A stretch of DNA of 61,145 nucleotides from a virus (Duplodnaviria > Caudoviricetes): IMG/VR virus record IMGVR_UViG_3300027844_000688, positions 1 through 61,145 of that record, one strand, 5' to 3'. The position numbers were made by a program, and so were the translations under genes. Below, piece after piece: positions 1,873 through 27,656 of the stretch (position 1 is its first letter; the number at the start of each line of letters is the position of its first letter). Below the pieces are notes generated by a model, which did not search any database, had not been told where the DNA came from, and saw nothing but the letters and a program-made list of their open reading frames with translations.

Positions 1873-1950
1873 AAGACACTGTGGGGCTTCCCCCCAACGA
1901 ACGGATAGAAGTTTTTTAGGGCCGAGATTAGATTGGAGTGGATAGAGTCA

Positions 1951-1994
1951 AAATGAGAAAACCCGGCCTCCCCCAAAGGAGAGACCGGGTTTTC
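1951..1994 (-). terminator. Intrinsic terminator after the major capsid gene
   Basis: Minus strand reads GAAAACCCGGTCTCTCC-TTTG-GGGGAGGCCGGGTTTTC-TCATTT, a GC stem plus U-tract. Confidence 0.8.
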
Positions 1995-2019
1995 AATAGG
2001 GACTAACTCGAAGTTGAAA

Positions 2020-2892
2020 CTATCGAGTCACGGTCAGGCGGGTCAGACCACGGGGGTTGTACGCCCCGATACCCAAGTTCTCGAACACACTGAACCCGAT
2101 GGTACGAGCCTTCGGATCATCTGCCGAGAGAACCGTCAACTCGGTACGGACAGGAATCCGACCGAACATCTCGGGCTCACAGCAAACGTACACCGTGCCC
2201 ACAGGAACCAGACGGCTGGTAATGATCTGGGCACCCCAAAGGGTAGCCTGGAGACCAGTCTTCAGCAGTGTGGCCTGGGATTCGATGTCCAGGATGTCCC
2301 GACCGAACTTGCGAATATCAGCGTAGTCACGGGCGTTCATAAACACCCGAGCCACACGGAGATCGTGTCGTTCAATCAGAGCAAAGGCATCTGCCAGTAC
2401 CGAACCGGAAAGCGGAGCCACGACCGGCTGGTCGGGGTTCGTACCTGCGGAGATACTGTCGTAACCACTGGTTGCGATGCTATCCAGAACAGCGAACACA
2501 CGTTCGTCCTCGGCGGCCTGAATCTGCGCTCGGGCAAGATCCTGGGCACGCTCAATGAGGTCGAAACGACGCTCCTTGATCTGGGTCAGCGGAATCTCGG
2601 GGTTCGAGGCAATCTCGAACAACGGGAAAATCACACGCCTGGGCTTGGTGATTGCCAGAATGTTCTGACCTTCTTCACCCACAACAAAGGCCGTCACATC
2701 GGGATCTTTGTCGTAGATTGGAAGCGCACCGTCAGGAAGCTGCTCGACCAAGAAGGTCTTGCGCCCAACGGCACTGTAATCACGCCGAGTACGGAGTGGT
2801 TGGGTCATGGAGGCAGCGAGCTTGGCTCGACCCTGTGGGGTCTTGATGTAGTCGCTGATGATTTTTTGCTTTACAGCATTGTTGACACTCAT
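2020..2892 (-). CDS. Major capsid protein (HK97 fold)
   Basis: 290 aa. The pattern GRAKLAASMTQPLR..DY..VGRK.FLVEQLP.GALP.YDKD resembles large-phage HK97 capsids. Sits after protease/scaffold/decoration genes, has an AGGAGG RBS and a following terminator. Confidence 0.85.
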   Translation of the reverse strand: MSVNNAVKQKIISDYIKTPQGRAKLAASMTQPLRTRRDYSAVGRKTFLVEQLPDGALPIYDKDPDVTAFVVGEEGQNILAITKPRRVIFPLFEIASNPEIPLTQIKERRFDLIERAQDLARAQIQAAEDERVFAVLDSIATSGYDSISAGTNPDQPVVAPLSGSVLADAFALIERHDLRVARVFMNARDYADIRKFGRDILDIESQATLLKTGLQATLWGAQIITSRLVPVGTVYVCCEPEMFGRIPVRTELTVLSADDPKARTIGFSVFENLGIGAYNPRGLTRLTVTR

Positions 2893-2905
2893 TGTTCAGC
2901 CCTCC

Positions 2906-3523
2906 TTATACGCGCTGGTCGTAGACCAGTTCGGTCTGGGTTGAATCGGGCGGCATCTTGAGAACACCGATCAGCGTATTGAAACCAGTACCGGTTGCAC
3001 CAGAATCACTGAATCCAGCGTTGTTCGCATCGTCGTGTGCGTTGTCAGCCGCAACGACGTTGGTCAAGTAGCCATTGAGAGATGCCACCAACCCGTCAGA
3101 GACGGAATAGGTAATATCAACACCACTGTTGAGATTAGCCGTCTCATAAAGAGCATTGGCATACGTTCCCTGACCAGAGATGTATGGTCCCTTACCAGAG
3201 GCGGTGCCCGGGGTGTTCTCAAACGAGTTACCGTTCGCACTGTTGATGAAGACACCAAGTACGACTGTATCTGCGCTTGCCTCGGGGCCACCAACATAGT
3301 TGGAACCCTCATCGGGGCGAGCGAAACATACAGAACCAGAGAGGACACCATTAGATGTGGTGTCAACCTGATCCGAAGTACCGGTTGTAGTATTAGGCGG
3401 GTTGTCCTGGGTGAAGCTATCTGCTGTCAGGACGCCCGTGGTATTACGAATACCAACGTGCAAAATCCGTAGCGCAGAGCTACTCTCAGTCCAACCACCA
3501 CTTGCCTGTCCAAGCAAAGGCAT
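2906..3523 (-). CDS. Putative capsid decoration/cement protein
   Basis: 205 aa, G/S/T/N-rich beta protein immediately upstream of the capsid gene. AGGAGA RBS. Confidence 0.6.
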   Translation of the reverse strand: MPLLGQASGGWTESSSALRILHVGIRNTTGVLTADSFTQDNPPNTTTGTSDQVDTTSNGVLSGSVCFARPDEGSNYVGGPEASADTVVLGVFINSANGNSFENTPGTASGKGPYISGQGTYANALYETANLNSGVDITYSVSDGLVASLNGYLTNVVAADNAHDDANNAGFSDSGATGTGFNTLIGVLKMPPDSTQTELVYDQRV

Positions 3524-3626
3524 AATCTTTCTCCTACCTATGCTCCCTGTTTACAGGGGGCGGTTGATGAAAACGCTCAAAGCGTTTTTTGTGAGAGACC
3601 ATCCCTCACACATAGTTAGCAAACTT

Positions 3627-3640
3627 ATTGAATGAATATC
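3627..3640 (-). promoter_or_regulatory. Putative phage late-promoter motif (GATATTCATTCAAT-N12-TATG)
   Basis: Recurring motif upstream of the decoration plus capsid pair. Confidence 0.5.
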
Positions 3641-3653
3641 GTAGGAAGTTTCC

Positions 3654-3712
3654 GAAAGTTAGCTCCCCCTGCTAAAAAACAGTCGCTAAATCGCAAGGGG
3701 AGGGTAACTTTC
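3654..3712. repeat. Long imperfect inverted repeat after the scaffold gene
   Basis: GAAAGTTAGCTCCCCCTGC...GCAAGGGGAGGGTAACTTTC. Confidence 0.6.
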
Positions 3713-3723
3713 AAAGTTTCGTC

Positions 3724-5385
3724 CTACGAGCCAAAGACGTTAGAAACGTCAGGAGCAGATTCCCACAGATTCGCAAGCTCGCTAATCTCACTGGCTGCGG
3801 TCTTGTTGACTGCACCAACGGACTTCACGCCCTTACTTGCCTTACGGGGCTGGGGACGCAGACGGGAAGCCTTCTTGGAAGATGCCTTCTCGTCATCGCC
3901 TTCGTCGGCATCGTCTTCATCGCCTTCGTCGGCTTCGTCGGCTTCGCCTTCGTCGGCATCACCCTCTTCCTCATCCTCACCAGCGAACTTGCCGCCGTAG
4001 AGGTTGGCAAGAAGATCGCCGTCCTCGGCCATGAGTTCCTCGGCCATCAGACCCATTGGATCTTCACCCAGGATCGGAGCCTCTTCACCCATTACGTCAC
4101 AGGCTTCGGATTCGGCCTCTTCTTCGGCCATCATCAGAGACTCAATGTTGGCCTCCATGTCAGCGTCGGAAGGACCAGCAGCCTGCTGTTCTTCAGCGAG
4201 CATCTCGGAAAGCATGTCCATCTCATCGGCACCGAGAGCGATAGCGAGACGCTGTAGAGCGGCCTTCTTGGAGGCTTCTTCTTCGGCCTCTTCTTCGGCT
4301 TCCTCTTCAGCTTCCTCTTCTGACTTCTTGGCCTTCTTGGAAGCTACTTCCTCTTCGGCCTCTTCGTCAGCTTCCTCTTCGGCCTCTTCCTCGGACTTCT
4401 TGGCTCGGAGGCGGCGGATACGTGCCTTCTTGGAGGCTTCCTCTTCCGCTTCCTCTTCGGCTTCCTCTTCGGCTTCCTCTTCGGCTTCCTCTTCGGCAGC
4501 CTTGGAGAAGGAACTACCGAGACCGGCAGCTACTTCATCACGGGAAAGGATGCCGTCACCATCGGTGTCGAGAGCAGCGAAAACAGCCATGCTTCCGCCC
4601 CACTCTTCGGCGGTAATGAAACCATCACCGTCCAGATCGTAGGCATCAAACATATCGTGGGCGGTTCCGCCCGTGGCTGCCTTGGCACCGTCTTCTTCGG
4701 CGAGCATCTCGGCGAGCATCGCTTCAGCAACGGCGGCTTCCGAGTCAACCTCTTCGGGTGCATCGGGAACAAGACCTGCGCTATCGGGAGCGAGTGTCTC
4801 GTCCGCTGGATCGTTCTGGTCTGCACGCATAGCCTGAAGCTCTGAACGCATAGCCTGAAGCTCTGACATTAGTTCGCCCTGGACACCTTCGTCCTCGGCC
4901 AACATTTCCTCACCGAGCATCTCGGCAAGAAGGTCACCATCAGCCTCTTCGTCAGCAGTAAAAAGACTCTGCTTCTGGAGGCGGGCGATACTGGCCTTGA
5001 TCTGGATGTCGGGGAGGTCCATCAGATCGAGAGCTTGATCTTCAATCTGTGCTGTGGTGGCGTTCTGTCCCAACATGGCCTGGGCAATACGGATGCACTT
5101 TGCAGCCTTACGCTCAACACTGGCACGGAGATCACGGGCCGACTTCAAGGCCGGGTGGTCGTGACCTTCATGGGGAACCGCAGGATGTTCGGCGTTCCCG
5201 TAAGGACCGGGGGTGGGATCTTCGGCCCACGACGAGGTGTCGCCATTCTCATAATCATGGGCATCAGGATCTTCCTGATGCGCCGGGTGATCATGGGTAT
5301 CAGCATCGGTATAACCAGGATTCGCCGGGGGTGGCGATGCCTGCTTCTGTTCTGCTGGGTTCCAAGTTTTGCGTGTACGTGCCAT
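3724..5385 (-). CDS. Putative capsid scaffolding protein with an EF-hand pair
   Basis: 553 aa, very acidic, lies between protease and capsid genes. DLDGDGFITAEE and DTDGDGILSRDE are canonical EF-hand loops. Contains EEEA repeats. Confidence 0.7.
   Translation of the reverse strand: MARTRKTWNPAEQKQASPPPANPGYTDADTHDHPAHQEDPDAHDYENGDTSSWAEDPTPGPYGNAEHPAVPHEGHDHPALKSARDLRASVERKAAKCIRIAQAMLGQNATTAQIEDQALDLMDLPDIQIKASIARLQKQSLFTADEEADGDLLAEMLGEEMLAEDEGVQGELMSELQAMRSELQAMRADQNDPADETLAPDSAGLVPDAPEEVDSEAAVAEAMLAEMLAEEDGAKAATGGTAHDMFDAYDLDGDGFITAEEWGGSMAVFAALDTDGDGILSRDEVAAGLGSSFSKAAEEEAEEEAEEEAEEEAEEEASKKARIRRLRAKKSEEEAEEEADEEAEEEVASKKAKKSEEEAEEEAEEEAEEEASKKAALQRLAIALGADEMDMLSEMLAEEQQAAGPSDADMEANIESLMMAEEEAESEACDVMGEEAPILGEDPMGLMAEELMAEDGDLLANLYGGKFAGEDEEEGDADEGEADEADEGDEDDADEGDDEKASSKKASRLRPQPRKASKGVKSVGAVNKTAASEISELANLWESAPDVSNVFGS
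4261..4500 (-). repeat. Coding tandem repeats (EEEA)n separated by SKKA
   Basis: 12-nt unit TTCCTCTTCGGC repeated in three blocks. Confidence 0.85.
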
Positions 5386-5386
5386 G

Positions 5387-6856
5387 TCAAGACTCCTTGT
5401 TCGGCGGTGTCGAATCGCTCATGTTGTTGTCCCTCACCGAAAGCAACTTTCCAAGCCGCATGAGGGTCATAGACTCTGAAACAGTAGGTTTTCTACCAAG
5501 TGATCCAGCGCAAGCATGGAGGTAACCCTCCAAGGAACCGTACCGATCAGTCGTGCCGACTTGTAGTGCGGTTCTATAGATACATCTCGGAATAGAAAGT
5601 CCAACGAAGTTATTGAAAGTTGCAACTTTGTTGATGAGGTCCGCATCTGTATCGCTCGACCTAATCAAAAGCTCCAAAGCTGCGTTGTAGCCCACTTTTC
5701 GCCGCTTTTCGGCGGCTTCTTTGATGACATTATCATTCAAAGCAGTGGAGGAACTTTCTGGTGACGGGTCAGGAGAAAGTTCATCTTTCAGTTCTTTCTT
5801 GCCCAACTCTTGGCGAATCTTTCCCTTGATTCGGTTGAGAATCATCTTCTGGACTTCAGACTCGAAGTCCCCAAGAGAGCCTCCAGCAGCATCGGGCTCG
5901 TCTCCGCCGCCACCTTCTTCCTCGTCGTCGCCCCACCCGGCATAAATGCCGTCACTCATATCGAGCATAGCGGCCTTTCGGCGGGTGTTCTCATCCCAAT
6001 CCTTTGGGGGAGTGGCGAGAACCCGCTGGGCCTTGCGAACAATGGTGGCGTCTATTTCTTGCGGTGAGAGGATGTTTCGCATCACAGCCCCACCGAAAGC
6101 GGGAGTTTCCACCCAAGAGGCTTCGATGAAATGAACTCCCCCGGTTGGATCAACTGAAGGGTGGCCGCAAAGTTCTGCGACTCGGTGTTTACTGCCGCCT
6201 TGGTCAAAGAACGTGTTGCCCTTCTCGTACCGAACATGCTTGCACATCTCGGTCTCATCAGCGGCGACATGCCCACATTTGGTGCAGATGGTGAAGTCAA
6301 CGGTACAACCCATCGACATCGAGGCCATCTTGCCGCCCTCGATAGACTTGACCAGATCAGTGTTCTTTCGGTCCGTGGCGATCAAAATATCGATGTAGAC
6401 GCTATCCCCGATATCACGGGCGCAGGCGTCAATGATCCTGCCTCTCGACAAGTCCTCGACTTGGACATGCTCCACGAAGTTGTGGGCTCCAATGAACGTC
6501 CGGTAGCTCTTGAGCAGAACGTCCCGATCCCAGCTATCGAGGTTGTTATTGATGAAACGGTCACACTCGGGCTTGATGCGGAAGTTGGGGAACTTCCGGT
6601 TGACCCGAAAGCCGTCTTCAGTCACCGACCCCATCTTCATGTTGGATACATCATAGGTATCCACAGAGGCCACGATAGTAGCGTGGGTCAATAGGAACTG
6701 TTCGGGGTTGAACTTCGTATCGAAGATCTCCCCGGCTTGGTCAATCAAGTTGACCGAGAGTTGGGTCTGGATACTTGCTGTGCGGATGGTCTTCCATGTC
6801 TTCTTATCGACACGGGGTTGAACAACAGTCGCACGGGCATACTTGAGGAACGCCAT
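5387..6856 (-). CDS. Putative prohead maturation protease with Zn-finger insertion
   Basis: Motifs NNN.D.W, NFVEH, SMSMGC, CTKCGH...CKH and FIEASWVETPAF. His and Ser spacing fits HK97/herpes-type head proteases. Position in the head operon agrees. Confidence 0.65.
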   Translation of the reverse strand: MAFLKYARATVVQPRVDKKTWKTIRTASIQTQLSVNLIDQAGEIFDTKFNPEQFLLTHATIVASVDTYDVSNMKMGSVTEDGFRVNRKFPNFRIKPECDRFINNNLDSWDRDVLLKSYRTFIGAHNFVEHVQVEDLSRGRIIDACARDIGDSVYIDILIATDRKNTDLVKSIEGGKMASMSMGCTVDFTICTKCGHVAADETEMCKHVRYEKGNTFFDQGGSKHRVAELCGHPSVDPTGGVHFIEASWVETPAFGGAVMRNILSPQEIDATIVRKAQRVLATPPKDWDENTRRKAAMLDMSDGIYAGWGDDEEEGGGGDEPDAAGGSLGDFESEVQKMILNRIKGKIRQELGKKELKDELSPDPSPESSSTALNDNVIKEAAEKRRKVGYNAALELLIRSSDTDADLINKVATFNNFVGLSIPRCIYRTALQVGTTDRYGSLEGYLHACAGSLGRKPTVSESMTLMRLGKLLSVRDNNMSDSTPPNKES

Positions 6857-6857
6857 T

Positions 6858-7490
6858 TCAGCCTACCATCCCAAGAATGTCACAACGCTTGATCAAGAAC
6901 ATGCAGGAAGGGCAACCCATGAGCTTCTCACTCATGCCGCTCTCCCGCTTGTAGATCGCCTTGCGAAGCGAACCTGACCCGCACTTTGGGCAGCCAAAGT
7001 CGCTACTGGTTGTCTCGCTCTTCGTCGCCCGATACTTTCGATCCAACGCCGCCCAGTACAAAGCCTTCTTCACATGGGCTTCTGCTACTCGTTGAGAGAG
7101 ATGAGCCTCAATCCTGGCTGTACGGCGTTGCTCACGTTCAGCATCTTCCTCATCGTCGTCCACCATAAAGGTTGGAAGTGGAGTGTCGGGAGAGTTGCGT
7201 GAGGGATCGGGACCACCTGGAACTTCCACTGAACCTGCCCCGCCGGGGACAGAATCGTGGTGGGGTTCGTTTACGGGTGAGTCCTGTCGGATGCGCTGGA
7301 GGTCTTCAACAGGGTATCGCTTGTTGCCGTATGCGAACTCCACATCGACCATACCAATAGCAGGGAACACCGACACCACTCGGCCAGACACCATAGAGTC
7401 TGCACCAAAAGGAGCAACAGCATCCCCGACAGAGAACTCCGAAGCTCTCTGTTGGTAATCAATATAGACGGTGGCTGACCGCTCGGACAC
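6858..7490 (-). CDS. Hypothetical protein (SH3-like N-terminus, C-terminal Zn ribbon)
   Basis: FSVGDAV...GRVVSV...VDVEF; CPKC...CPSC. Confidence 0.65.
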   Translation of the reverse strand: MSERSATVYIDYQQRASEFSVGDAVAPFGADSMVSGRVVSVFPAIGMVDVEFAYGNKRYPVEDLQRIRQDSPVNEPHHDSVPGGAGSVEVPGGPDPSRNSPDTPLPTFMVDDDEEDAEREQRRTARIEAHLSQRVAEAHVKKALYWAALDRKYRATKSETTSSDFGCPKCGSGSLRKAIYKRESGMSEKLMGCPSCMFLIKRCDILGMVG

Positions 7491-7505: not shown

Positions 7506-8381
7506 TCAAGCTGTCAGGTCAAAACCGTGTTGGACAGCGGCCTTCTTCCCAATGGAAGAAGCGGCATCATTCACGATATCGTCTGCGAGACTGACCAGCT
7601 TTTCCATACGTTCAGCCGAACCAGAAATCATCTCTTCAAGCCGCAGTTGGGCGGTCGGAGAAGAATCACCAGCACCGGTCATGCTATCGCAAAGACCCTG
7701 GAGGTAAGGAACGACCTCGCTCACGGCACCGACCACTCGATCAGATGCAGCAAGGGATTCCAGAGAGAGGCCGTCTTCACCGGCTGCTCCAGCAGAAATC
7801 AACGAGTCCCGAATCTTGTCCACGGTGCTGACCAAGGTATCGGCAGCGGAGGAAATCCCTCCAACACCTTCGACGCCCGCAGCAGCGAGCTTCGCAGCAC
7901 AGAGCTTGAGGTGGTCTCGGAGACGCCCCAGTTCCATCACCTGTTCATCGTGAGCCTGCTTGGCGAGTTGGACCACCCGGGAAGCCTGCTTGCCGGGTTC
8001 GGCACCTCGACTCTCTGTGGAGGCTGAAGCCAAATCACCCTCTTCCTGCTCCCCACGGAGTTCTCGGTTGGACTGTTGGGTGAAATGCCCATCCATGTAG
8101 GCACCTTCGTCCCCGTCGCCTTCGGCGGGACCGGCAACCTCACGACCGATGTCGTCTGGATCAAAGCCTTCTTCCTTCACGACATCGAGTTCATCAAGAG
8201 CAGTGCGATCTGCGCCTGCCTGACGCTCGACGTGATCTGAAAGCAGATCACAGCGATATGAGAAATCAGTTGCGACATGGGTGGGGACTCCAAGAGCCCT
8301 CGCCTCTGTCTCAAAAAGAGTAGCGATGCGGTCAAGTGTCTGGGACACCTGCTTTGCACCGTGTGGGGTCAGAGTTGCCAT
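7506..8381 (-). CDS. Probable nested in-frame gene (291 aa, MATLTPHGAKQV...) within the 1592-aa ORF
   Basis: AGGAGG at 8391-8396, 9 nt before ATG 8381. Promoter-like motif at 8481-8494. Confidence 0.6.
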   Translation of the reverse strand: MATLTPHGAKQVSQTLDRIATLFETEARALGVPTHVATDFSYRCDLLSDHVERQAGADRTALDELDVVKEEGFDPDDIGREVAGPAEGDGDEGAYMDGHFTQQSNRELRGEQEEGDLASASTESRGAEPGKQASRVVQLAKQAHDEQVMELGRLRDHLKLCAAKLAAAGVEGVGGISSAADTLVSTVDKIRDSLISAGAAGEDGLSLESLAASDRVVGAVSEVVPYLQGLCDSMTGAGDSSPTAQLRLEEMISGSAERMEKLVSLADDIVNDAASSIGKKAAVQHGFDLTA

Positions 8382-11300
8382 TTTCTTGTGCCTCCTAAAC
8401 CGGGTCGGGCCAGATTGTTCGTCTCTATCACGCAAAGGCCCTTCAGATACAGGAAGCCCTCTGCTTATATCACCAAGGTTATAGAGGAAAGATTGGGATG
8501 ACTTGTTTGCCAAAGATACTGCCCTGGTCAGCGAGGCTTCTTTGGCCTGTTCCAAGATTCGCCTCACTTGCTCGGGCTCAAGTGTCCCGTCTTCCACAAG
8601 TTTCGCCAGGGCTTGCCTGAAACTTTCAGGGACTTCTTTGCCCCCTGAAAGTTTGGAATGTTCGTCTGCGAGAGCCTTATGGACCGCTTCTGTGTGTTGA
8701 GAAACAGCCTTCTGGACCTCTTCATCGGTCCCCTCTGGAGGGGTCTTCAACTTGCCTATCGAGGCAAATGCCTCGACCACGGCGGTACTGGAATGAACCC
8801 GGGCCACCGCATCATCGATCTGGTCACGTTTCTCTGACGGAGAGAGATCGGCCCACTTCTTCTTGTCCTTCTGTTCCTTCTTCTTGTCCTTCTGTTCCTT
8901 CTTCTGCTTCTTCTTCCGTTCGTCTTCCTTGCCCTTACCTGACAGAGCCTTGGCGAGCATGGGGCCTTTAGTAGAGAAGTCGTGAGAAGCGTTCCGGCGC
9001 ATCCAGTCTTCCAAGAACGCTCTACCATCCCCCGTCATGGAGGAACTCTTGCTGTCCAGAGCCTTCGCCATGTCACCGTAAGGAGATTTATCGCCTCCGG
9101 TTACGGCCACGATATCGGTAGGGCTCATATCAGCGAGGGCTTCGTCGTAGATCCGTTTGGATTCATCGCTGCCGGGATCGTCAGCGATCTTTAGGACATC
9201 CCCCATCTTCCCCTGGCTCTGAAGGGATTTGATCATCTGGAGCACACCCGCTGATGGGGCGTCCCCGGTATTCCCAAAGGAATCGGGCTGGTCATTGAGC
9301 AATCGGGCAGTAGCGAGAGAGTTCCGTACAGCCTTGACTTGCTTGTACTCCGCAGACCTCTTTTCGTCCTTGAGAGTCCCGTCTACATTGGTCAGTGAAG
9401 AAATCCGGTCATTGAGCTTGTGGAGGATTTCCTCTTGCTCCTTCTCCTTCATGGAGCCGAACTGGACGACGGCGATGTTAGCCCTCTCACCCAGCTTCTC
9501 TGGGGTGGCTTGATCAGCGTCGTTCTTGATCTTGGAGCCACCAGACCACATCGGATTGAACGTGACCTGCTGGGCGATCTGGGAGTAAGCGATGGATTCT
9601 GCGAGTTCCTCGACCGAAACCCGCTTCTCCGCTTTGGCGAGCCTTGCCTTTGCAGCCCCCAGACTCCCCTCGACCCCCTGGACCTGCTCTTCTAACTTGG
9701 CCTTCTGCTCTTCCTTCTCTTCTGGTGACCCCTCACCGGACTCCAACGCTTTGAGTTGCTCCCCCAAGTCCTTCAGATTTCTCTCGGATTCCTTGACCTG
9801 GGACTGGGCTGCCGAGAGCTTCTCGAAGGGTTCAGTGTCCACACCACTCCGAGATGCCCTGGACTTATCCAATACCCAATCGGGGGTCTTACCCCCAACA
9901 GCCATCACATCAATAGCCTTGTTGATATGCCCCTGGACAGATTCGGACAACTCCAGTTGTTGGTCTTGGTCCAACAGCGCCATCGCATCTGCAATAGACT
10001 TCTTGGTTTCCCACATCGGCGAAGCGGAAGCCATCTGGCCTTCAAGCCGATTGACCGTCTTTGTGATCTTGTCTGCATCAGCTTTTAGCTTCTTGATCCT
10101 GCTCTCGTCCCGGGCTTTCTGGGTCTCACCTGCCCGAAACAACCCACCTTCGAGATCCTCCATCTCTGCAAGAAGTTCAGCCCGTTCTTGGTAAAGCGAA
10201 CCGAGTTCTTCCTCGGTCTCTTGCAGATCTTCGCTGCCATCGCCCATCTCTACATCAAAGGCATCTGCAATCGTGGCCTCCAACGCTTCGACGGCCTTTT
10301 CGATTCTTTTGGTCTTGTCTTCGGGGGACTCTTCCTTGGGAGTCTCCGAACCTTCACCCTCGTCCTTACCCTCGTCCTTACCCTCGTCCTCGTCTGTCCC
10401 TGGATCGTCCCCTGCAAGCCACGCCTCGGCGTCTTCTTTGGTCTTGAACTTCTGCTGTAAGGGCAGACCATCCTTATCCATCAAAGACTTGTGCTTGGCC
10501 TTGAAAGGCTTGCCACCCTTCTCTTTGGTCTCCCAAAGATCTCCTGGTTTCCGTTCCACGGCTTCCAAGTACCGAGAGGCAACTCGGTCAAGGGACTCTT
10601 CGTAAATGGTGTCCTTTAGATCAAAGGTGTCCTGCTGCTTGTTGGACACGAACCCGACTCGGGCCTTCAGCTTCTTCTTGCCCTTGGCAGGGGTGACACC
10701 CTTCGCCAAGAGATCGTTCGAGTACACGGGACTGGTCCCATCGGTCGCCACCGTGATGTGTGCAATCTTGTTGCTGCTCGTCACCCCGGCAACCTTGACC
10801 TTGACGGTTTGGCACTTCTCATCTGCCGCCCAACCGACGATCTCCAAAGGAGCAGAATCGCCCATAGGTAGCGCCTTGACCTCTTCTGGGCTGGGCTTGA
10901 ACTTGATCGTCATATGGTGGGCGAACCGCTTGGAAAGAAGGGGGATACCCGTCTCTTTCTCCCACCACCGGAACAACGCAGAGGGGTCGTCGAGAATGAC
11001 TGCTGTAAAGAGAGCCTTTGGCTTCTTGGCGGCAATCCTCTTGTAGTTCAGCGACAAGTCACGGTCTCCTTCCTGGCCCTGCGTCTCGATATCTGGATCA
11101 TCGACATCAAGTCGGCGCTTACGGAGATCGTACCGTGGGGGCTTCTTTTTTGGGTTGGGCTGGGACATATCTTCGATAGCTTCGTCCTCCTTCTCGGAAG
11201 GAGCCTTGGTAGCCACCCTTGTGGCCTCCCAACGAACCGCATGAATCGCTGCCCTTTCGCTGGTGTGCTTCTCAATAGAGAACCCCTCGCCCAAGGTCGA

Positions 11301-12284
11301 ATACCAGCCATGCCCGAACAAATAGACATAGCCTTTGGGGTCGAAGCTGCGAAACCCGACCGGGCTGCCCTTCATTTCCTCCACACCCCAATCGAACACT
11401 GCCTTCACAATGGTCGATTTGGAGAGAAGACCTCGGAGCCATCGTAAAAGCCCCGCCTCTCGATCCAGGGCGGCCTTCTTGACGGACATATCCTCGATGA
11501 CCGTGCCGTCCTTCATATAAGCATCCTCCAAGCCTGGGACCAAATACTGATCCTTCAGCATCGAAGAGGTATGCCCCACGGTCTTGGAGACCTCTTCCAA
11601 GACCTTCTTGAACTCATCTTTGAGGATTGCATCACGCTCTTTCCGGTCTACCGGAAGCTCCGGTCCGTCCTTACGAACGGCTTTCAGCGCATCCTGCATC
11701 TCACGATTAGCGTGGAACCCCCGAAGGTCTTTGGCGGTCACATCGTATTGATCGAGGTATTCGTTCACCTCTTTACCGTCGATCTTCTTCTCGATGCCCT
11801 CCCCCTGGAAAGCCAGAATGGAGTCCTCGGATTGCTTGTCTTTGACGGCCTCTTCCAAGGCTTTCACGACGTACTCGTTCTCGACGGTCTTATCGTGCTT
11901 GACCCCCGACTTACCTGTGTACTTGAGGCGAGCCTTGCCCCCTTCAAACGACACATGCCGCTTCTCCAAACAGGTCACCCCATAGTGGCCGTCCTCGGCA
12001 GACGAGGTGTTCCCGACCCGCTCGTAGGTTTCGTTGATTAGGGCAATCGCCAGGGCAGTCAATCGGGTCTCATCATCCTTGGATTGGAGGTCTTTCTTGA
12101 CCTTCGCTCGGAGATCGGAGATCGACGATTGGAGCTTGTCCAACCGCTCCGCTTTCTCTTCATGTCGCTGCTGGACCTGACGGGGGCCATACTCGTAGTG
12201 GGTATTCCCCTCTTCGTCTTCCGTCTTGGACTTGTACTTACCTTCCAAGTACCGGGCAGCGACTATGTTGGACAATGGGATCAT
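7506..12284 (-). CDS. Multidomain protein: type IB DNA topoisomerase + 2H phosphoesterase + coiled coil + C-terminal head-type domain
   Basis: TopIB catalytic residues in ERVGN, GKSGVKH, KDLRG and GHT....KDQYL. Two HxT motifs (HHMTI, AHITV). Long helical region follows. Confidence 0.8.
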   Translation of the reverse strand: MIPLSNIVAARYLEGKYKSKTEDEEGNTHYEYGPRQVQQRHEEKAERLDKLQSSISDLRAKVKKDLQSKDDETRLTALAIALINETYERVGNTSSAEDGHYGVTCLEKRHVSFEGGKARLKYTGKSGVKHDKTVENEYVVKALEEAVKDKQSEDSILAFQGEGIEKKIDGKEVNEYLDQYDVTAKDLRGFHANREMQDALKAVRKDGPELPVDRKERDAILKDEFKKVLEEVSKTVGHTSSMLKDQYLVPGLEDAYMKDGTVIEDMSVKKAALDREAGLLRWLRGLLSKSTIVKAVFDWGVEEMKGSPVGFRSFDPKGYVYLFGHGWYSTLGEGFSIEKHTSERAAIHAVRWEATRVATKAPSEKEDEAIEDMSQPNPKKKPPRYDLRKRRLDVDDPDIETQGQEGDRDLSLNYKRIAAKKPKALFTAVILDDPSALFRWWEKETGIPLLSKRFAHHMTIKFKPSPEEVKALPMGDSAPLEIVGWAADEKCQTVKVKVAGVTSSNKIAHITVATDGTSPVYSNDLLAKGVTPAKGKKKLKARVGFVSNKQQDTFDLKDTIYEESLDRVASRYLEAVERKPGDLWETKEKGGKPFKAKHKSLMDKDGLPLQQKFKTKEDAEAWLAGDDPGTDEDEGKDEGKDEGEGSETPKEESPEDKTKRIEKAVEALEATIADAFDVEMGDGSEDLQETEEELGSLYQERAELLAEMEDLEGGLFRAGETQKARDESRIKKLKADADKITKTVNRLEGQMASASPMWETKKSIADAMALLDQDQQLELSESVQGHINKAIDVMAVGGKTPDWVLDKSRASRSGVDTEPFEKLSAAQSQVKESERNLKDLGEQLKALESGEGSPEEKEEQKAKLEEQVQGVEGSLGAAKARLAKAEKRVSVEELAESIAYSQIAQQVTFNPMWSGGSKIKNDADQATPEKLGERANIAVVQFGSMKEKEQEEILHKLNDRISSLTNVDGTLKDEKRSAEYKQVKAVRNSLATARLLNDQPDSFGNTGDAPSAGVLQMIKSLQSQGKMGDVLKIADDPGSDESKRIYDEALADMSPTDIVAVTGGDKSPYGDMAKALDSKSSSMTGDGRAFLEDWMRRNASHDFSTKGPMLAKALSGKGKEDERKKKQKKEQKDKKKEQKDKKKWADLSPSEKRDQIDDAVARVHSSTAVVEAFASIGKLKTPPEGTDEEVQKAVSQHTEAVHKALADEHSKLSGGKEVPESFRQALAKLVEDGTLEPEQVRRILEQAKEASLTRAVSLANKSSQSFLYNLGDISRGLPVSEGPLRDRDEQSGPTRFRRHKKMATLTPHGAKQVSQTLDRIATLFETEARALGVPTHVATDFSYRCDLLSDHVERQAGADRTALDELDVVKEEGFDPDDIGREVAGPAEGDGDEGAYMDGHFTQQSNRELRGEQEEGDLASASTESRGAEPGKQASRVVQLAKQAHDEQVMELGRLRDHLKLCAAKLAAAGVEGVGGISSAADTLVSTVDKIRDSLISAGAAGEDGLSLESLAASDRVVGAVSEVVPYLQGLCDSMTGAGDSSPTAQLRLEEMISGSAERMEKLVSLADDIVNDAASSIGKKAAVQHGFDLTA
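8481..8494 (-). promoter_or_regulatory. Putative internal late-promoter motif (AATCTTTCCTCTAT-N12-ATAAG)
   Basis: Loose copy of the motif, ~100 nt upstream of the internal RBS/ATG. Confidence 0.45.
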
Positions 12285-12323: not shown

Positions 12324-14021
12324 TTAGAAGCGGTCATCGCCTTCCGCTGGTGGTTCATAGTTCAACCCGAGCTTTTCGGCGATTAGCTGGACGACTTCAG
12401 TATTTTCCAGGATCTTATCTGCGGCACTGGAGTAAACCGAACGCATCATCTCATTATACATGGGATCGTTGATGGACCAGAGGTCACGTTCCAGCTTCAT
12501 GCGTGTGCTGACCGGATCGATATTCAAGAGTTCCAAGATCACGTCAACATCCAAACTGCCCTTCTGATACAGATTGAACAACGCATCGAACGTCTCACTA
12601 TTGTCTCGCAGTCCAAGACGGGTGAAGCTCAACTTCGGATAGATGATCTGCTCACCAAGTAGTTCATCCTCTTCGATGAACCCCATGCGGCGGCACATCG
12701 GCTTGAAGATGTATTCGTCAACGAAATCTTGAAGAATCTCCCGCAGGAGCATGTATCGAGTGTTGATGACTTCCAGATTGATCCGGTCGCCCGAGTAGGA
12801 AGACTCCCCTGAAAGGAGGCTCTCCGTGACCCCAAGACCCGAATACATCTGCCGGTCGGTCAGATCGTACTCGCTTGAAAGCTCCAGCAGACGGTTGGTG
12901 TTTCCCCCACCCATCTCTTCCCAAGTGACTTGGAAGTTAGTGACGATGGTGTAGTCAGGGTCTTGAAGACACAGATCGATCTGGTCACGCAGTTCCTCGG
13001 TATCCGCCGCATCCATGTCCTCTGCATAAACCAACCGATACGGGGTCATGTGCCTGGAGGCGATGCTGGTCTGGGCCTGTCGGAGTTTATCTCGATAGAC
13101 CAACACCCGAATGCACCGTTCAAGGATTGAGTGCCCTCGGGGCTCGTACTGGGACTTCTTCCGACTCATGTAGTACACGAACGACCCTGCATCGGGGTCC
13201 GTGTTCAAGGGGATGTTGCGGCCTTCTTGGATCGCCTCCACAACATCTCTCGGCATCGAGTTCACGATCCGTTGGGCCTGGACATCCCCCTGGTTTGCCT
13301 TCTGAACGATGTCCTTGGTCTTGGAGTCTGGGATTAGCTCAATGATCTTCTCGCTGGTGAACGGGAAGCTCTCCATGTGAATCTGCTCTGGGGGCAAAAC
13401 CCGCACCGCAGACCACCCATGAAAGTTCCGCTGCATCCAACGGACCTCACGCTCATCGGCATCCTCACGCTCATGGTAAGTCTCGGTCACTTCCCCATCC
13501 TCGGTCAGTTCCCGTCTGGCTTCCTCCCGAATGTCTTGGGGCATGTCCTCGGAGATGTCCTCAACGAAGATGAAGACCTCTCCAAGCAAGTAGTAGTCAT
13601 GGACAATCTCGATGAGCCTATGGAGCAGACCTTCTTTCTTGCTCCACCGCTCACAGAAATCGAGGGCTTGTTGGGCCAAAGTACGGTCTTCAGCTTTTGG
13701 CATCCCCAAACGAATCTTGGAAAGGGGAAGCTCCGTATGAAGATCGATAGCCTGCCCAACGAAGGGATCTGTCTGGTAGAAGAACCGATAGTAGTTCCGC
13801 TGCTCATCAAGAGACTGCGGAAGCTCCAAAAAGTCTGTTGAAAGCTCGGGGGAATAGAAGTTCCCCCCAGAGCCTCCGGTCGTCCCACCGCCTGTGAAGG
13901 CCACCCTCGAACGCATCGCAGACGTGACCACCACCTTGCGTGGTTTGCCAGTAGTCACCTTCGGTCTGGCTGGGGCCTTCCCTACAACCTTCGTGTCATT
14001 GGGGTTGTTCATCTTTGCCAT
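12324..14021 (-). CDS. Portal protein
   Basis: 565 aa near TerL. FYQTDPFVGQAIDLH, YYLLGEVF, RGHSILERC and GLGVTESLLSGE resemble portal helices. Confidence 0.8.
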   Translation of the reverse strand: MAKMNNPNDTKVVGKAPARPKVTTGKPRKVVVTSAMRSRVAFTGGGTTGGSGGNFYSPELSTDFLELPQSLDEQRNYYRFFYQTDPFVGQAIDLHTELPLSKIRLGMPKAEDRTLAQQALDFCERWSKKEGLLHRLIEIVHDYYLLGEVFIFVEDISEDMPQDIREEARRELTEDGEVTETYHEREDADEREVRWMQRNFHGWSAVRVLPPEQIHMESFPFTSEKIIELIPDSKTKDIVQKANQGDVQAQRIVNSMPRDVVEAIQEGRNIPLNTDPDAGSFVYYMSRKKSQYEPRGHSILERCIRVLVYRDKLRQAQTSIASRHMTPYRLVYAEDMDAADTEELRDQIDLCLQDPDYTIVTNFQVTWEEMGGGNTNRLLELSSEYDLTDRQMYSGLGVTESLLSGESSYSGDRINLEVINTRYMLLREILQDFVDEYIFKPMCRRMGFIEEDELLGEQIIYPKLSFTRLGLRDNSETFDALFNLYQKGSLDVDVILELLNIDPVSTRMKLERDLWSINDPMYNEMMRSVYSSAADKILENTEVVQLIAEKLGLNYEPPAEGDDRF

Positions 14022-14350
14022 CAGTTATCACCAGTCACCGGTCGTTCGAGAGATACTACCGGCGTCTTTTCTACCACGGGTGGTTCTATCATCAGATCGG
14101 GATCTTCAGTGTTGGTGTGAGAACCCAACACTCGGATGGAATCGAGGGCTCCCAACGCTCTGTCGGTATCCCGGATAGTGCGCTTGATCCGTGTCCTCTC
14201 CAAACCAAAAGCGGCCTTCTTCTCCAGAGAACGACAGGTATCCAGCACCGCCAACAAGGATTTATGAGCCGTGCGGATCTTTGCGTGGATCTCCCTGTCT
14301 TCTGGAGACGTAAGCGTGCTACTGATTCGTTTGAGGTATCGTGACATCAA
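14021..14350 (-). CDS. Hypothetical protein
   Basis: 109-aa ORF translationally coupled to its neighbours. Confidence 0.6.
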   Translation of the reverse strand: MMSRYLKRISSTLTSPEDREIHAKIRTAHKSLLAVLDTCRSLEKKAAFGLERTRIKRTIRDTDRALGALDSIRVLGSHTNTEDPDLMIEPPVVEKTPVVSLERPVTGDN

Positions 14351-14619
14351 CCTACCTTACCCTTGCCAGTCCACTTTTCTTTATTAGTGAGGAAGCCTTT
14401 TTTGTAAGCCATCTTCACGATTCTCTTGAGTAGGTCAGTATCCGCCGGAGACCCCTTGAAGATTCCCTCCCACGTTCCACCGATCTTCACAAACGCATCC
14501 GAGATGCGGTCAAACTCGCTGGGCTGGGAATAGACTTTCCCCTTGTAAAGCATATTGACGATCTTCTGAATGAAACGATGGTCTGCTCTAATGGGAGAAA
14601 TGGGGGATAACGTAGCCAT
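14347..14619 (-). CDS. Hypothetical protein
   Basis: 90-aa ORF with stop/start overlaps to TerL and the next gene. Confidence 0.65.
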   Translation of the reverse strand: MATLSPISPIRADHRFIQKIVNMLYKGKVYSQPSEFDRISDAFVKIGGTWEGIFKGSPADTDLLKRIVKMAYKKGFLTNKEKWTGKGKVG

Positions 14620-16457
14620 TATCGAACCTTCTTCGGCCCTTTGAGCCGATCTATTTGCCTGGATTCGTGGCTGCCGCTCCGCATGAGCTTCCTCCGCAAG
14701 TGGGTCGGTTGGTTTCTGGGGATGGCATTACCACGCCCTCCTTTAGCAAAGTAAATAGGCTTTCCAAGCTGTTGACTGGCAAGCCACACCATACGAACAA
14801 GTGCATCACTCATATCATCGTGCTTACCCCTGACGTTAGGGGCCTCAACAGTCGTCAGGTACTTGGAGTGTTGCTTCGCTTGAAGCTCTAACAACTCTGT
14901 GAGGTAGGGGCAGTGTTCTTGGCCGTCTGGGATTGGGTGGTCATACAGGACCAACCGCTTATCCCACATCATGTCCTTGAAGGTCTTGAAAATCTCGGAG
15001 ACCAAGTTCTTCGTCATGTGCCTGGACTCCATCTGGCGCAGCCCTCTCTTCGCCAGGGCTTGCTCCAACGGGATTCCAGCCCACTGATCGAAGACGCCCT
15101 CGGTGATAAAGAACTTCTTGCCCAGATCCGCAATCCAATCCGCGACATCCTCGAACTCCAAGCGGTCTTGATCCTTGTACTTTCCAACACCCGCTCTGAT
15201 CTGCTCGATGTAATCGAGAACGACTACTGAACCTCTCTCCTTATCTGCCTCGATATGACCAATGGCAACGGCAGTGCCGTCCCCGGCCAACCCAAGGTCG
15301 AGCCCAAGAAAGTGTGGGGACCGTGCTTTCGCTCCTGTACGGGGCCTACGATCTGGATCAACGCAGGCCATCAAGTCTTCCTTGCGTTCAATCCATCCAC
15401 GGGTTCTGTCCGTGAACTCCCCGCCGTACTCCGTAAAGAAGACAATCGGGTCTTTCTGGTAGTGCTTCTCGAACTCGCTTGCAGGGACGGTGGGGTTCAC
15501 CTCCCAGGTTGGGGCCTGGATCGCCAGCATGTTCTTGCTCGCTGGACCCCCAGACATAGCGATCTGGAACAACTTGTAGAACTGTCCTTGTCGTCCCAAG
15601 GGGGATGAGATGGAGATGATTCGACCCTCAACCGGACCAATCGGTATTCGAGCATCGTCTGGGTCTTTGGGGGAGAACGCCGATGTCGAAGGCGTCACAG
15701 CATTGTAGACTTCTTCAGCCCCCGACTGACCTTTGTCAGTGAAGTGGGCCATCTCATCGAGAATCACGACCAAGTTACCCGCACCACGAAGACCCTTCGC
15801 CACGCAAGATCTGAAGGTAATCTTCAGAGTCGCCTTGGCCGTTGGATCATTGTCGTATGAACCGTACTTCTCGATGTCCGAAGGGGTCTGAAACCGGGCA
15901 TAGGACATCGTGTTGTTCGCCGTGTAGGGCGAGAAGAATGCACAGTTCCGGTAATGCCCCGACACCTCTTGATAGAGCAGACCAGCTTGGTCCTTGTCCG
16001 TAGCGACCGAGATAATCTGAATGTTGTTCCCAGAAGGCAGACCGTAATATCCCTGCGGATTCCCCTTGGAGATAAGCCTGTACGTCTCGTAGGCGGCGAT
16101 ACAAGCAGAGATAGCTGTCTTGCCTGACCGTCGTCCGATGGAGAGAATCATCTCTCGGCGTTCCTCACCAGGAATGATCTCTTGGACGTTACAGCGGCCC
16201 TCTTCATAGAGCTTCCGAAGATAGCCCGCCTCGGTCATGTACTGGTAGTCGTCCCGCCGCCAGTCTGAAACAGGGACGTTCTTGTCGATGTCATTGAGGG
16301 GTATCCCGTAGTGAGCCTTCAGAATGATCTTCTGGACGGGAAAGAGCTTCATAGCGAGACCCCAATCGGCCTCGATGAACTCAATGATGTCGGCTGCTTC
16401 CGTGTCGTTGTCGGTAGGAGACCTCCCAATCGTAGATGCAATAGTCGAGAGGCTCAT
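14619..16457 (-). CDS. terL: Terminase large subunit
   Basis: Walker A GRRSGKT, Walker B VVILDEMAHF, coupling motif ISSP, RNase-H-like nuclease LGLDLG...HDDMSDA. Confidence 0.92.
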   Translation of the reverse strand: MSLSTIASTIGRSPTDNDTEAADIIEFIEADWGLAMKLFPVQKIILKAHYGIPLNDIDKNVPVSDWRRDDYQYMTEAGYLRKLYEEGRCNVQEIIPGEERREMILSIGRRSGKTAISACIAAYETYRLISKGNPQGYYGLPSGNNIQIISVATDKDQAGLLYQEVSGHYRNCAFFSPYTANNTMSYARFQTPSDIEKYGSYDNDPTAKATLKITFRSCVAKGLRGAGNLVVILDEMAHFTDKGQSGAEEVYNAVTPSTSAFSPKDPDDARIPIGPVEGRIISISSPLGRQGQFYKLFQIAMSGGPASKNMLAIQAPTWEVNPTVPASEFEKHYQKDPIVFFTEYGGEFTDRTRGWIERKEDLMACVDPDRRPRTGAKARSPHFLGLDLGLAGDGTAVAIGHIEADKERGSVVVLDYIEQIRAGVGKYKDQDRLEFEDVADWIADLGKKFFITEGVFDQWAGIPLEQALAKRGLRQMESRHMTKNLVSEIFKTFKDMMWDKRLVLYDHPIPDGQEHCPYLTELLELQAKQHSKYLTTVEAPNVRGKHDDMSDALVRMVWLASQQLGKPIYFAKGGRGNAIPRNQPTHLRRKLMRSGSHESRQIDRLKGPKKVR

Positions 16458-26506: not shown

Positions 26507-27112
26507 TCAATCAACGGTATACATGACTGGGCTGGCCTGTGGATTCCTCTGAACCTCCCGAAGAATGTTCAGATTCTCGGAGATGGTCGTAAACAACGTG
26601 GCATAATCCATCATCCTGGTGTTATTTGACATCCTCTTGATAGAGCGGATGAAGCGGTGGCGTACAAGCCCCTGGCTAACACCAAGCCTCTTGGCAACTT
26701 CGCTCTGACAGGTCGTATCGAACATCAAGGCCATGATGTCCACGTCCAGCGGGTCCGAGAGGAACTTCCGTAAGTCATCTACCAGCTTGTCCCGACAGAT
26801 ATCAGGAAGCTCCAAGATGAACTGGATGCGGGCAGTGGCCCTTTGTAGTCGATAACAGACCGTTGGTTGGCTCACGTTGAAGATGGAAGCGATGTCGGTC
26901 TGCTTCAGGTGCCGGAAGTAGTAGAGGTCTATGAAGTCGGCCTCTCTTGGGGGGAGATCCCCCAAGATCCTTTTGATTCGGTCGATCTTTTCGAGTGCCT
27001 CGTCGTCCGGTTCGGTGAATATCGAATCCAACGCCGAGATGCCATCTTCGTTAGCAAACCTTGTTTCTATTTCCGTTGGATCGATCATATGGTGTCCTGT
27101 CCATCTACCCAT
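26507..27112 (-). CDS. Protein with two tandem sigma70 region-4-like HTH domains
   Basis: LPPREADFIDLYYF..LKQTDIASIFNVSQPTV and CQSEVAKRLGVSQGLV. Confidence 0.75.
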   Translation of the reverse strand: MGRWTGHHMIDPTEIETRFANEDGISALDSIFTEPDDEALEKIDRIKRILGDLPPREADFIDLYYFRHLKQTDIASIFNVSQPTVCYRLQRATARIQFILELPDICRDKLVDDLRKFLSDPLDVDIMALMFDTTCQSEVAKRLGVSQGLVRHRFIRSIKRMSNNTRMMDYATLFTTISENLNILREVQRNPQASPVMYTVD

Positions 27113-27656
27113 TGGCTCCCCCTTCCTCTGTGATTTCCATGAAGATTCGAGGCAGCCGAGTAATAACGCTCAAAGAGCGGAGGTCTATCTTTACGAAGAC
27201 GTGTTCGCCTTCGGAGTCCATAACCAGCCCTTCCAAAGAGCGGTAGGCACCTTCGATAACACGAACACTTGCCCCGATGACAATACTCTCGGAAGTGATT
27301 TCTCGGAGCTTCCGCTTCATTTCCCCTACGTGATCGTCGGTGATCACACAGAGAACCCGATATCCAACGGAACACTTCCGAGACATGACCTTGGCGACGT
27401 AAGCCTTCTCTTCCAACCGGAAGAAGTCTGTCTCGTCAGGGCCACTCCCAATGAAGACGTAGCCCTCCATCAAGTGAATCATCACCTTGCGGCCATTCTT
27501 CCAATAGATGGTGGAGGGCACAAAGACCGGGTGGTCTGAAGTGAGTTTTAGGTCTTTCCGAAGCTGCTTCTCAAGCACATTGTCTGCGATGTATGTCTCG
27601 CCTAAACGTGTAAGCTCAAGTGCGGCCCAGGTTGTTCGGTCTCGATGATCGGTCAC
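27105..27656 (-). CDS. nusG: NusG-family transcription elongation factor
   Basis: NGN domain (VFVP...LMEGYVFI) plus KOW motif (GASVRVIEGAYRSLEGLV). Confidence 0.8.
   Translation of the reverse strand: MTDHRDRTTWAALELTRLGETYIADNVLEKQLRKDLKLTSDHPVFVPSTIYWKNGRKVMIHLMEGYVFIGSGPDETDFFRLEEKAYVAKVMSRKCSVGYRVLCVITDDHVGEMKRKLREITSESIVIGASVRVIEGAYRSLEGLVMDSEGEHVFVKIDLRSLSVITRLPRIFMEITEEGGANG

Follow-up and report, generated by a model that had tools for sequence, protein, structure and literature searches.

A 1592-residue topoisomerase IB and 2H phosphoesterase chain in the head-gene cluster of a huge phage: a candidate capsid-loaded enzyme kit

Why would a phage keep a type IB topoisomerase (TopIB) among the genes for its head? 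The question is raised by IMG/VR record IMGVR_UViG_3300027844_000688 (Caudoviricetes), the 61,145-nucleotide stretch analyzed here in full and termed the window, in which a single frame encodes the 1592-residue protein P0001 with an N-terminal TopIB and a 2H phosphoesterase domain (Table 1). A preliminary description had placed this gene between portal and protease, a position upheld by family matches of both neighbors (phrog_16240, E 1e-28; phrog_18299, E 3e-13), and had suggested virion-delivered enzymes that relax the injected DNA and counter nucleotide-signal or RNA-cleaving defenses. Comparison with known families supported the view that both domains are real and look active, and P0001 probably represents a set of enzymes that is loaded into the capsid, judging from the gene and from analogy. 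For the whole composite of a cargo protein encoded in the head-gene cluster of a huge phage, including packaging and injection, the probability was put at about one half. Since the 61-kb record was judged 13% complete, the phage would measure ~0.4-0.5 Mb. The sequencing runs holding the stretch carried marine or seawater metagenome labels, and the closest named relative was an unannotated uncultured phage of 485 kb (LR745208.1, locus L004; major head protein 89% and portal 66% identical). The identical 1592-residue protein was recorded from 14 contigs and the long frame is therefore not a single-assembly error.

The N-terminal part of P0001 was assigned to the TopIB superfamily by several comparisons. 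Pfam Topoisom_I (PF01028) matched residues 38-244 (E 3.5e-27, 95.7 bits vs. a cut-off of 23.7), the Deinococcus TopIB structure 2f4q aligned to residues 16-277 (E 1e-11), and PDB chains of Deinococcus, archaeal, and vaccinia TopIB, including 6z01, 2h7f, and 1a41, were matched with E values from 1e-11 to 7e-3. The intact R-K-R-H-Y set announced for ~11480-12240 was recovered with all five residues inside that range and in register with the corresponding positions of 2f4q and 2h7f. Across P0001 and 119 long relatives, both arginines and the lysine were conserved in 120 of 120 proteins, the histidine in 116, and the tyrosine in 115, the remainder being gaps. Of the usual N-terminal domain no more than the final hairpin was present: ~35 residues precede the TopIB core, the PDB chains align from residue 62-63 onward, and the initial ~60 residues of the domain are absent, as also holds for a lone 280-residue relative (G004). 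The full N-terminal DNA-binding domain is dispensable for TopIB catalysis and membership of the superfamily therefore holds. TopIB started within the first 60 residues in 21 of the 119 long relatives, making the N-terminal topoisomerase of the window a minority layout.

The second enzymatic domain gave an AlphaFold model of a pseudo-symmetric two-lobe alpha/beta fold with a mean predicted local distance difference test score (pLDDT) of 94.9, and the two HxT motifs proposed at ~10600-11020 were found inside it, their histidines invariant in 66 of 66 aligned members and both threonines kept in at least 90%. The predicted 2H fold was borne out by the best 41 VIA-align rows, all of them 2H enzymes (Z 9.1-12.8), with mouse CNPase at Z 12.8 (root-mean-square deviation, rmsd, 2.4 over 124 residues) and the fungal tRNA-ligase kinase-cyclic phosphodiesterase (CPD) structure 6u05 at Z 12.2; Foldseek matched the model to CNPase with E 5e-4. 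Other 2H branches scored Z 7.0 (drCPDase), 6.4 (Acb1), 6.3 (rotavirus VP3), 6.2 (Burkholderia phage phosphodiesterase and plant CPDase), and 5.9 (LigT-like). CNPase and the Trl1 CPD (PDB 9etl, 2yp0, 6u05) share with P0001 the fold and the two H-x-T motifs over 122-124 aligned residues, but are longer (~200-250 residues vs. ~135), and the P0001 chain holds no kinase or ligase partner. The sole Pfam family matched by the domain was tRNA_lig_CPD (E 7e-6, above its own cut-off), the match being confined to positions 173-229 of the 250-position family model, in its second half. At E<=1e-3 a full HMMER scan identified 599 relatives of the domain, including many stand-alone proteins of 130-165 residues. 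Pfam partners in the 61 of these that were scanned included HAD_SAK_1 (nine proteins; its "Swiss Army Knife RNA repair" context is taken from the Pfam family title), a PolyA_pol/CCA-adding head (six), cREC with NUDIX (one), and TopIB+2H+HAD combinations (two). Because of the CNPase/Trl1-like fold and the RNA-repair partner domains, RNA-end healing was favored over degradation of cyclic oligonucleotides, and a cyclic phosphodiesterase acting on 2',3'-cyclic phosphate ends is the better fit to sequence and model. The defense role first suggested thus kept its RNA-repair half, in view of the fold and the HAD and CCA partners, and lost favor in its Acb1-like, cyclic-nucleotide-signal half (Z 6.4 vs. 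12.8 and 12.2).

The remainder of the chain, described beforehand as ~750 residues of helical sequence, resolved into two parts, a charged spacer of ~690 residues and a C-terminal module of 291 residues (C-module), the latter being encoded on its own in many relatives. Within P0001 the C-module constitutes a nested in-frame gene with its own ribosome-binding site, read in the long frame as "RFRRHKK" before the internal methionine, and the internal Shine-Dalgarno sequence and ATG were kept in the fused relatives L005, L016, L019, and G002. The module was encoded separately in L004, L010, L012, L014, and L022 and fused in L005, L016, L019, L021, and G002; the junction frame was open in the window and in these five fused relatives and held stops in L010, L012, L014, and L022. 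It also formed the end of 14 further long relatives. Among 34 database proteins of 196-429 residues matching the C-module, 27 aligned from their own residue 1 to residue 1302 of P0001. A conserved element was seen 60-80 bases upstream of the internal ATG in an alignment of 15 loci, fused as well as split, with the core CTATAC, ~10 bases, TA(A/T)AG, 3-4 bases, and GGGC; the pattern occurred once in the window vs. 0.02 times expected. The nested gene and its conserved upstream element are a new finding of the present analysis.

Contigs from seawater RNA libraries (>=99% identical) covered the C-module in four of four libraries, and those of library X18 also covered 10611-10819 and 10967-11175 in the 2H region. 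Contigs of three of the libraries ended without a loose end inside or just after the upstream element (X15 at 8458, X18 at 8457, X19 at 8440), a weak hint of an RNA end; the DNA runs contained the whole stretch. Most of 8460-12284, the portal gene, and the terminase gene had little or no RNA contig cover, which is uninformative about their expression.

The C-module model (pLDDT 76) contained an acidic stretch, FDPxDIG.E..GP.E...DE.YM.G.FTQQ.NRELR, that is strongly conserved yet disordered in the model, and this combination suggests a docking peptide. A second protein of the window, P0002, carried two more copies of the motif, had no family match, and may be an adaptor using the C-module docking site. 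A window-wide search with a hidden Markov model of the motif returned P0001 and P0002 and no others, and the motif occurred once or twice per genome in five related records, counts that ruled out a common tag on many proteins. No match to the C-module was found in BFVD at E<=1e-3.

A short motif, termed the joint motif, is repeated in P0001. IVAARYL before TopIB and RVASRYL after the 2H domain, both noted earlier, were located at residues 7-13 and 567-573, and a third copy, RIAAKKP, was added. The 2H domain is flanked by "NYKRIAAKK" before and "RVASRYLE" after, where relatives run straight on, and it was matched in 0 of 12 portal-anchored giant proteins of related loci; in this context it has the appearance of a cassette inserted into the chain. 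The pattern [RKH][IVL]A.{1,2}[RKH][YFW] occurred 15 times in 13 giants compared with 1.3 times in shuffled sequences, and 0 of 500 shuffles reached 15, an enrichment that is not a clean test because many copies represent one inherited position; a looser pattern gave no enrichment (6 vs. 3.5). The motif is not part of the 2H domain, since just ~6-9 of 65 stand-alone 2H proteins (counted by eye) carried an N-terminal copy.

The insert after the topoisomerase aligned just with L012, and partly L022, among 12 relatives and was reached by 34 of 270 compared proteins. The following acidic segment (family consensus ATKT.AE.EDEE...PK.KPPR.DLR...DPD...D.DLSLNYK.) was matched in 93 of 119 long topoisomerase relatives and also in topoisomerase-free post-portal proteins (L021, L038-L050). 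The spacer consists of 36% D/E/K/R over its ~690 residues, with weak similarity common to seven relatives at residues ~850-1100 and in-frame tandem repeats of 12 bases (10351-10390) and 21 bases (8856-8905, KKEQKDK units). A database variant (P0187) lacked exactly one seven-residue KKEQKDK unit, so that spacer length is polymorphic. Searches of PHROGs, NCBIfam, and PADLOC with P0001 gave no match, the ESM Atlas held no usable match for residues 576-1295 or 1296-1592, and twelve alternative-frame and antisense open reading frames (ORFs) within the gene had no Pfam match.

Comparison of related loci identified the topoisomerase as the constant part of the family and the other enzymes as swapped cassettes. 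In a portal-anchored set of 27 loci (26 from IMG/VR plus L004, five of which end too soon to tell), the post-portal gene encoded a variable giant of 508 to >2800 residues that included TopIB in 16 loci, corresponding to ~10 distinct sequences with several near-identical pairs; in two apparent misses the topoisomerase lay further downstream. Partner domains included a CCA-adding enzyme with an intein, another 2H domain, and GNAT in L012, a CCA-adding enzyme in L014 and L022, HAD_SAK_1 in L004, and an Ntn-hydrolase-like domain with DUF5661 in L017. A Pfam intein with a LAGLIDADG domain spans residues 164-610 of L012. A word-index search at E<=1e-10 returned 429 long and 346 short relatives. Accessory families were counted in the 120 long relatives among the matches listed, where HAD_SAK_1 (12), another 2H family (13), PAP2 (9), and DUF5661 (9) were joined by Ham1, GNAT, GGACT, superoxide dismutase, ParB, InPase, and RNA ligase, and where no MuF or portal fusion was found. 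Swapping of cargo domains by homologues at this locus, which the preliminary description had proposed to look for, was thus found. In a further set of 29 loci anchored on the TopIB of a 349-residue relative, the topoisomerase lay in the terminase-to-protease block in 26 and had the window-type layout in 11. In the 228-kb genome of the cultured Xanthomonas phage PhiXhv-12 (L031), a gene for a 668-residue "topoisomerase" (8065-10071; 31% identity across residues 42-200) lies 2.7 kb upstream of the head-tail connector gene, and proximity of a topoisomerase to structural genes may therefore also occur in a cultured phage.

Table 1. Features of the P0001 locus and neighboring genes, with positions in the window.
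Feature	Positions	Strand	P0001 residues	Remarks
P0001 frame	7506-12284	-	1-1592	1592 codons; ATG at 12284 with GGAGG in front
TopIB domain	11460-12284	-	1-275	
Joint motif copy 1, IVAARYL	12246-12266	-	7-13	
Catalytic R89	12020-12018	-	89	
Catalytic K125	11912-11910	-	125	
Catalytic R188	11723-11721	-	188	
Catalytic H238	11573-11571	-	238	
Catalytic Y247	11546-11544	-	247	
Insert after topoisomerase	11223-11459	-	276-354	
Conserved acidic segment	11016-11222	-	355-423	
Joint motif copy 2, RIAAKKP	11019-11039	-	416-422	Directly before 2H domain
2H phosphoesterase domain	10605-11015	-	424-560	CNPase / tRNA-ligase-CPD type
First 2H motif, H457-M-T459	10916-10908	-	457-459	
Second 2H motif, H509-I-T511	10760-10752	-	509-511	
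Joint motif copy 3, RVASRYL	10566-10586	-	567-573	Directly after 2H domain; helix in model
Charged spacer	8502-10562	-	575-1261	E/K/A-rich
Junction	8382-8501	-	1262-1301	Translated regulatory DNA
Promoter-like element	8456-8489			
Shine-Dalgarno AGGAGG	8391-8396			9 bases before ATG at 8381
C-module	7506-8381	-	1302-1592	Nested in-frame gene, 291 residues
C-module, helical hairpin	8220-8366			
C-module, acidic motif	7998-8210			Conserved, disordered
C-module, four-helix bundle	7527-7991			
Large terminase gene	14619-16457	-		
90-residue protein gene	14347-14619			Post-terminase
Portal gene	12324-14021	-		Upstream neighbor of P0001; phrog_16240, E 1.2e-28
210-residue protein gene	6858-7490	-		Conserved; always next after C-module
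Head-maturation protease gene	5387-6856	-		phrog_18299, E 3.3e-13
Scaffold-slot gene	3724-5385	-		553 residues; between protease and capsid genes
Major head protein gene	2020-2892	-		
Terminator-like hairpin	1957-1994	-		17-pair stem just 3' of major head gene
P0002 gene	19115-20119	-		334 residues; two more copies of C-module acidic motif flanking a Lys/Asp-rich middle

In the mechanism proposed for P0001, the gene would be read late with the portal, protease, scaffold, and capsid genes, and the internal start would also yield the C-module on its own, its transcription probably being driven by an internal promoter. The free C-module would build into the interior of the prohead, and the rarer full-length chain with the same C-terminus would co-assemble with it and carry the enzymes in, in the manner of lambda C/Nu3 and of herpesvirus UL26/UL26.5, where the protease is loaded via a shared scaffold end. 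Cleavage at the joints by the head protease may follow, and on infection the enzymes would enter along with the DNA. There the topoisomerase could relax torsional stress of both supercoil signs in a genome of about half a megabase without ATP, and the 2H enzyme could open 2',3'-cyclic phosphates at the ends that metal-independent host RNases leave when they cut tRNA or other RNA. This would constitute a ligase-free end-healing route in which the cyclic phosphate is opened, the phosphate removed, and the CCA end rebuilt, the later enzymes being those fused in relatives. In its most specific form, a poxvirus-like TopIB with a changeable RNA-repair and host-modifying kit that is loaded herpesvirus-style through the C-terminus it shares with an abundant head-core protein, cut at R-V-A-x-R-Y joints, and injected, the proposal is tentative and somewhat unlikely to hold in every part.

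Packaging would be the weakest step of this composite, as delivery in the virion is argued from gene position, fusion to a head-cluster module, and analogy, and several observations weigh against the proposal. The placement of the C-module in the prohead comes entirely from its gene position; a wide PDB search with its fold returned generic helical bundles (Z<=11.9), as is common for helical models, and among 50,697 phage records one unannotated uncultured phage matched the module and no other, no cultured relative being identified. The upstream element did not behave as a general promoter of the window, where one exact copy was found and a looser pattern occurred five times vs. seven expected, and the strict pattern missed eight of eight further loci, although the CTATAC core was present in most by alignment. 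RNA libraries can hold DNA, and the contigs described above show neither true ends nor levels. No HAD phosphatase, CCA-adding enzyme, or RNA ligase was encoded in the window, which holds ~13% of the genome. The topoisomerase itself was also found outside the giant protein: it lay directly after the large terminase gene in 15 of the 29 TopIB-anchored loci (a sister group of L038-L050, L064, and L065; TopIB ORF at ~9001-10050), fused in 13 of the 15 to a homologue of the 90-residue post-terminase protein of the window; no head gene was found within 9 kb of TopIB in three of the 29; a lone 280-residue topoisomerase gene lay far from the portal in the 90%-complete relative G004; and the 346 short relatives add to the same side. 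In 11 of the 15 sister-group loci the post-portal gene retained just the conserved acidic segment.

The post-terminase placement points to an alternative in which the topoisomerase serves DNA packaging or head assembly rather than the next infection and need not be ejected. At the terminase/portal vertex it would free twist as ~0.5 Mb of DNA is pumped in, or it would untangle replicated DNA, with the other enzymes active late in the cell that produces the phage. Such a role retains some probability because the sister-group topoisomerase adjoins the terminase gene; it would also be in keeping with the fusions to the 90-residue homologue, the short forms without cargo domains, and a TopIB present in single copy in five of five large related records, like a core function. 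The RNA-repair, acetyltransferase, phosphatase, and pyrophosphatase cassettes carried in the same chain have no evident packaging role, and C-module fusion in several lineages points to incorporation, so that a packaging role in place of delivery is judged unlikely, the two roles being mutually compatible. The 2H domain invites a different reading as an anti-signaling nuclease against cyclic oligonucleotides or 2'-5'-linked signals in cyclic-oligonucleotide-based antiphage signaling (CBASS), type III CRISPR, or similar systems, working as Acb1 or the 2',5'-phosphodiesterases of rotaviruses and coronaviruses do. Acb1, VP3, and the Burkholderia phage phosphodiesterase have the same 2H fold (Z 6.0-6.4; BFVD rows 8, 22, 25, and 31), no RNA ligase family was found by Pfam in the 61 scanned 2H relatives, and an earlier survey argued that polyvalent-protein 2H domains lack a link to RNA ligases and favored signal-nucleotide degradation or RNase roles for them (Iyer et al., 2017; PMC5512222). 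Acb1 (PDB 7t26, 7t27) is likewise a small phage 2H phosphoesterase, but its partners and Pfam assignment differ from those of P0001; it aligned to the model at Z 6.0-6.4 with an rmsd of ~4 and in BFVD rows at TM 0.39-0.48, with no sequence-family match. The fold lies ~6 Z units nearer to CNPase and Trl1-CPD, openers of 2',3'-cyclic phosphates, the sole Pfam match is the fungal tRNA-ligase CPD, the partners are RNA-repair HAD phosphatases and CCA-adding enzymes, and PADLOC had no match. As the fold does not fix the substrate, an Acb1-type activity keeps a share of the probability, although a small one, and must be called quite unlikely.

A further possibility concerns the frame itself, which might comprise separate genes for an enzyme protein (1-1301) and for the C-module (1302-1592), joined by a functionless lost-stop accident. 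The junction does carry a full ribosome-binding site and ATG, its linker is translated regulatory DNA, on two short contigs the gene callers predicted just the 291-residue protein (P0307), a 93%-identical relative (P0153) is recorded as a 291-residue protein, and the parts are divided by a stop in five related lineages. Against an accident, the ~40-codon junction is open in the window, L005, L016/L019, L021, G002, and 14 further long relatives, where a chance stop-free junction would have a probability of ~0.05-0.1 per lineage (a rough estimate, not a computed test), and the same frame recurred on 14 contigs. A functionless fusion was accordingly considered very unlikely.

The proposed cargo protein combines features of several known systems. 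Poxvirus TopIB is carried in the virion, where it is a poxvirus hallmark, and helps early transcription; poxvirus, bacterial, and mimivirus enzymes have the same catalytic core and R-K-R-H-Y set as P0001 (PDB 2h7f, 1a41, and 2f4q matched). P0001 differs from poxvirus TopIB in the absence of the first ~60 N-terminal residues and in its fusion within a giant chain. In lambda C/Nu3 and herpes simplex UL26/UL26.5 the C-terminal part of the protein is also made alone, for UL26.5 from its own promoter, and the shared end brings the enzyme into the procapsid, the passenger being the maturation protease and the shared part the scaffold. The layout of P0001 resembles these pairs in its in-frame internal start with a ribosome-binding site conserved in relatives, whereas its passengers would be a topoisomerase and an RNA-end enzyme in place of the protease, the products being predicted from the reading frames. 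Phage T4 loads Alt and internal proteins via the prohead core, trims them by protease, and injects them, and its Pnkp/Rnl enzymes repair cut tRNA. The packaged T4 proteins are separate and small, the T4 repair enzymes are not packaged, unlike what is proposed for P0001, and the joint motif R-V/I-A-x-R-Y/F does not resemble the targeting sequence of T4.

Polyvalent proteins, known from phages and conjugative elements (Iyer, Burroughs, Anand, de Souza, and Aravind, 2017; PMC5512222), are the closest described kind; they share with P0001 several enzymatic domains per chain, a portal/terminase neighborhood, and domain shuffling, and packaging and injection were proposed for them. P0001 carries at least two effector domains (TopIB and 2H) in one chain, its relatives at least 12 accessory families, and the gene lies among head genes; 2H, GNAT, InPase, and ParB domains recur in both groups. 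In contrast to polyvalent proteins, the P0001 family keeps TopIB as its constant part, the word "topoisomerase" occurring in the available article, supplements aside, in the reference list alone, and the P0001 chain closes with a new C-module, in its own right a nested gene. Phage-specific type I topoisomerases that have a tyrosine-recombinase-type domain were noted in some jumbo phages by Iyer et al. (2021), though not in the setting of P0001. No account of a head-locus or virion TopIB in phages was found in the literature searched, and none of the accessible sections of the PaBG and RsoM2USA papers or of a 2026 jumbo-phage review gives a virion TopIB.

The head-gene block of the window runs on the minus strand in the order large terminase, two small genes, portal, P0001, 210-residue gene, protease, EF-hand protein, 205-residue gene, and major head protein, with overlaps or gaps mostly of 1-39 bases from terminase to protease. 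The terminator-like hairpin beyond the major head gene was the longest and most G+C-rich on the coding strand from the terminase through the end of the capsid gene, with a weaker overlapping call at 1973-1955. A PDB sequence search with the protease gave no match. A pair of calcium-binding EF-hands (Pfam EF-hand_5, E 8e-12) occupies residues ~243-284 of the scaffold-slot protein, whose ends are conserved among relatives around a variable middle. Contigs from seawater RNA libraries (>=99% identical; four runs from four studies) also covered the capsid, 205-residue, scaffold-slot, and protease genes over 1900-5563, and the window phage therefore appears in RNA libraries of its own habitat. In relatives, head genes reach about twice the usual length via large internal insertions, as in the portal of L025-L029 and L044, the terminase of L022-L024, L047-L049, and L064, and the protease of L021, L050, and L053. 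Elsewhere in the window, a sigma-70 region 4 protein (26507-27112, minus strand) adjoins a weak antiterminator-like match (27105-27656, minus strand), and the two products are possible phage transcription factors by sequence. The rest of the window is given to replication and recombination functions (clamp loader, Toprim primase, SbcCD-like, RecA, RuvC, RecD2, class II ribonucleotide reductase) and a glutamine synthetase (51385-52584), and Rfam had no match within it.

In the largest known phages, TopIB is the anchor of a protein family with hundreds of members. Should it work at the packaging motor, it would have a bearing on how torsional arrest is avoided when very long genomes are packed. 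A concrete candidate mechanism for loading the full-length chain is provided by the nested C-module, which is also a possible handle for bringing foreign enzymes into capsids. Should the proteins be packaged, the family would be a natural catalogue of what huge phages need in the first seconds of infection, in which RNA-end repair ranks high, and an incoming genome of half a megabase would bring its own swivel and its own tRNA-end repair.

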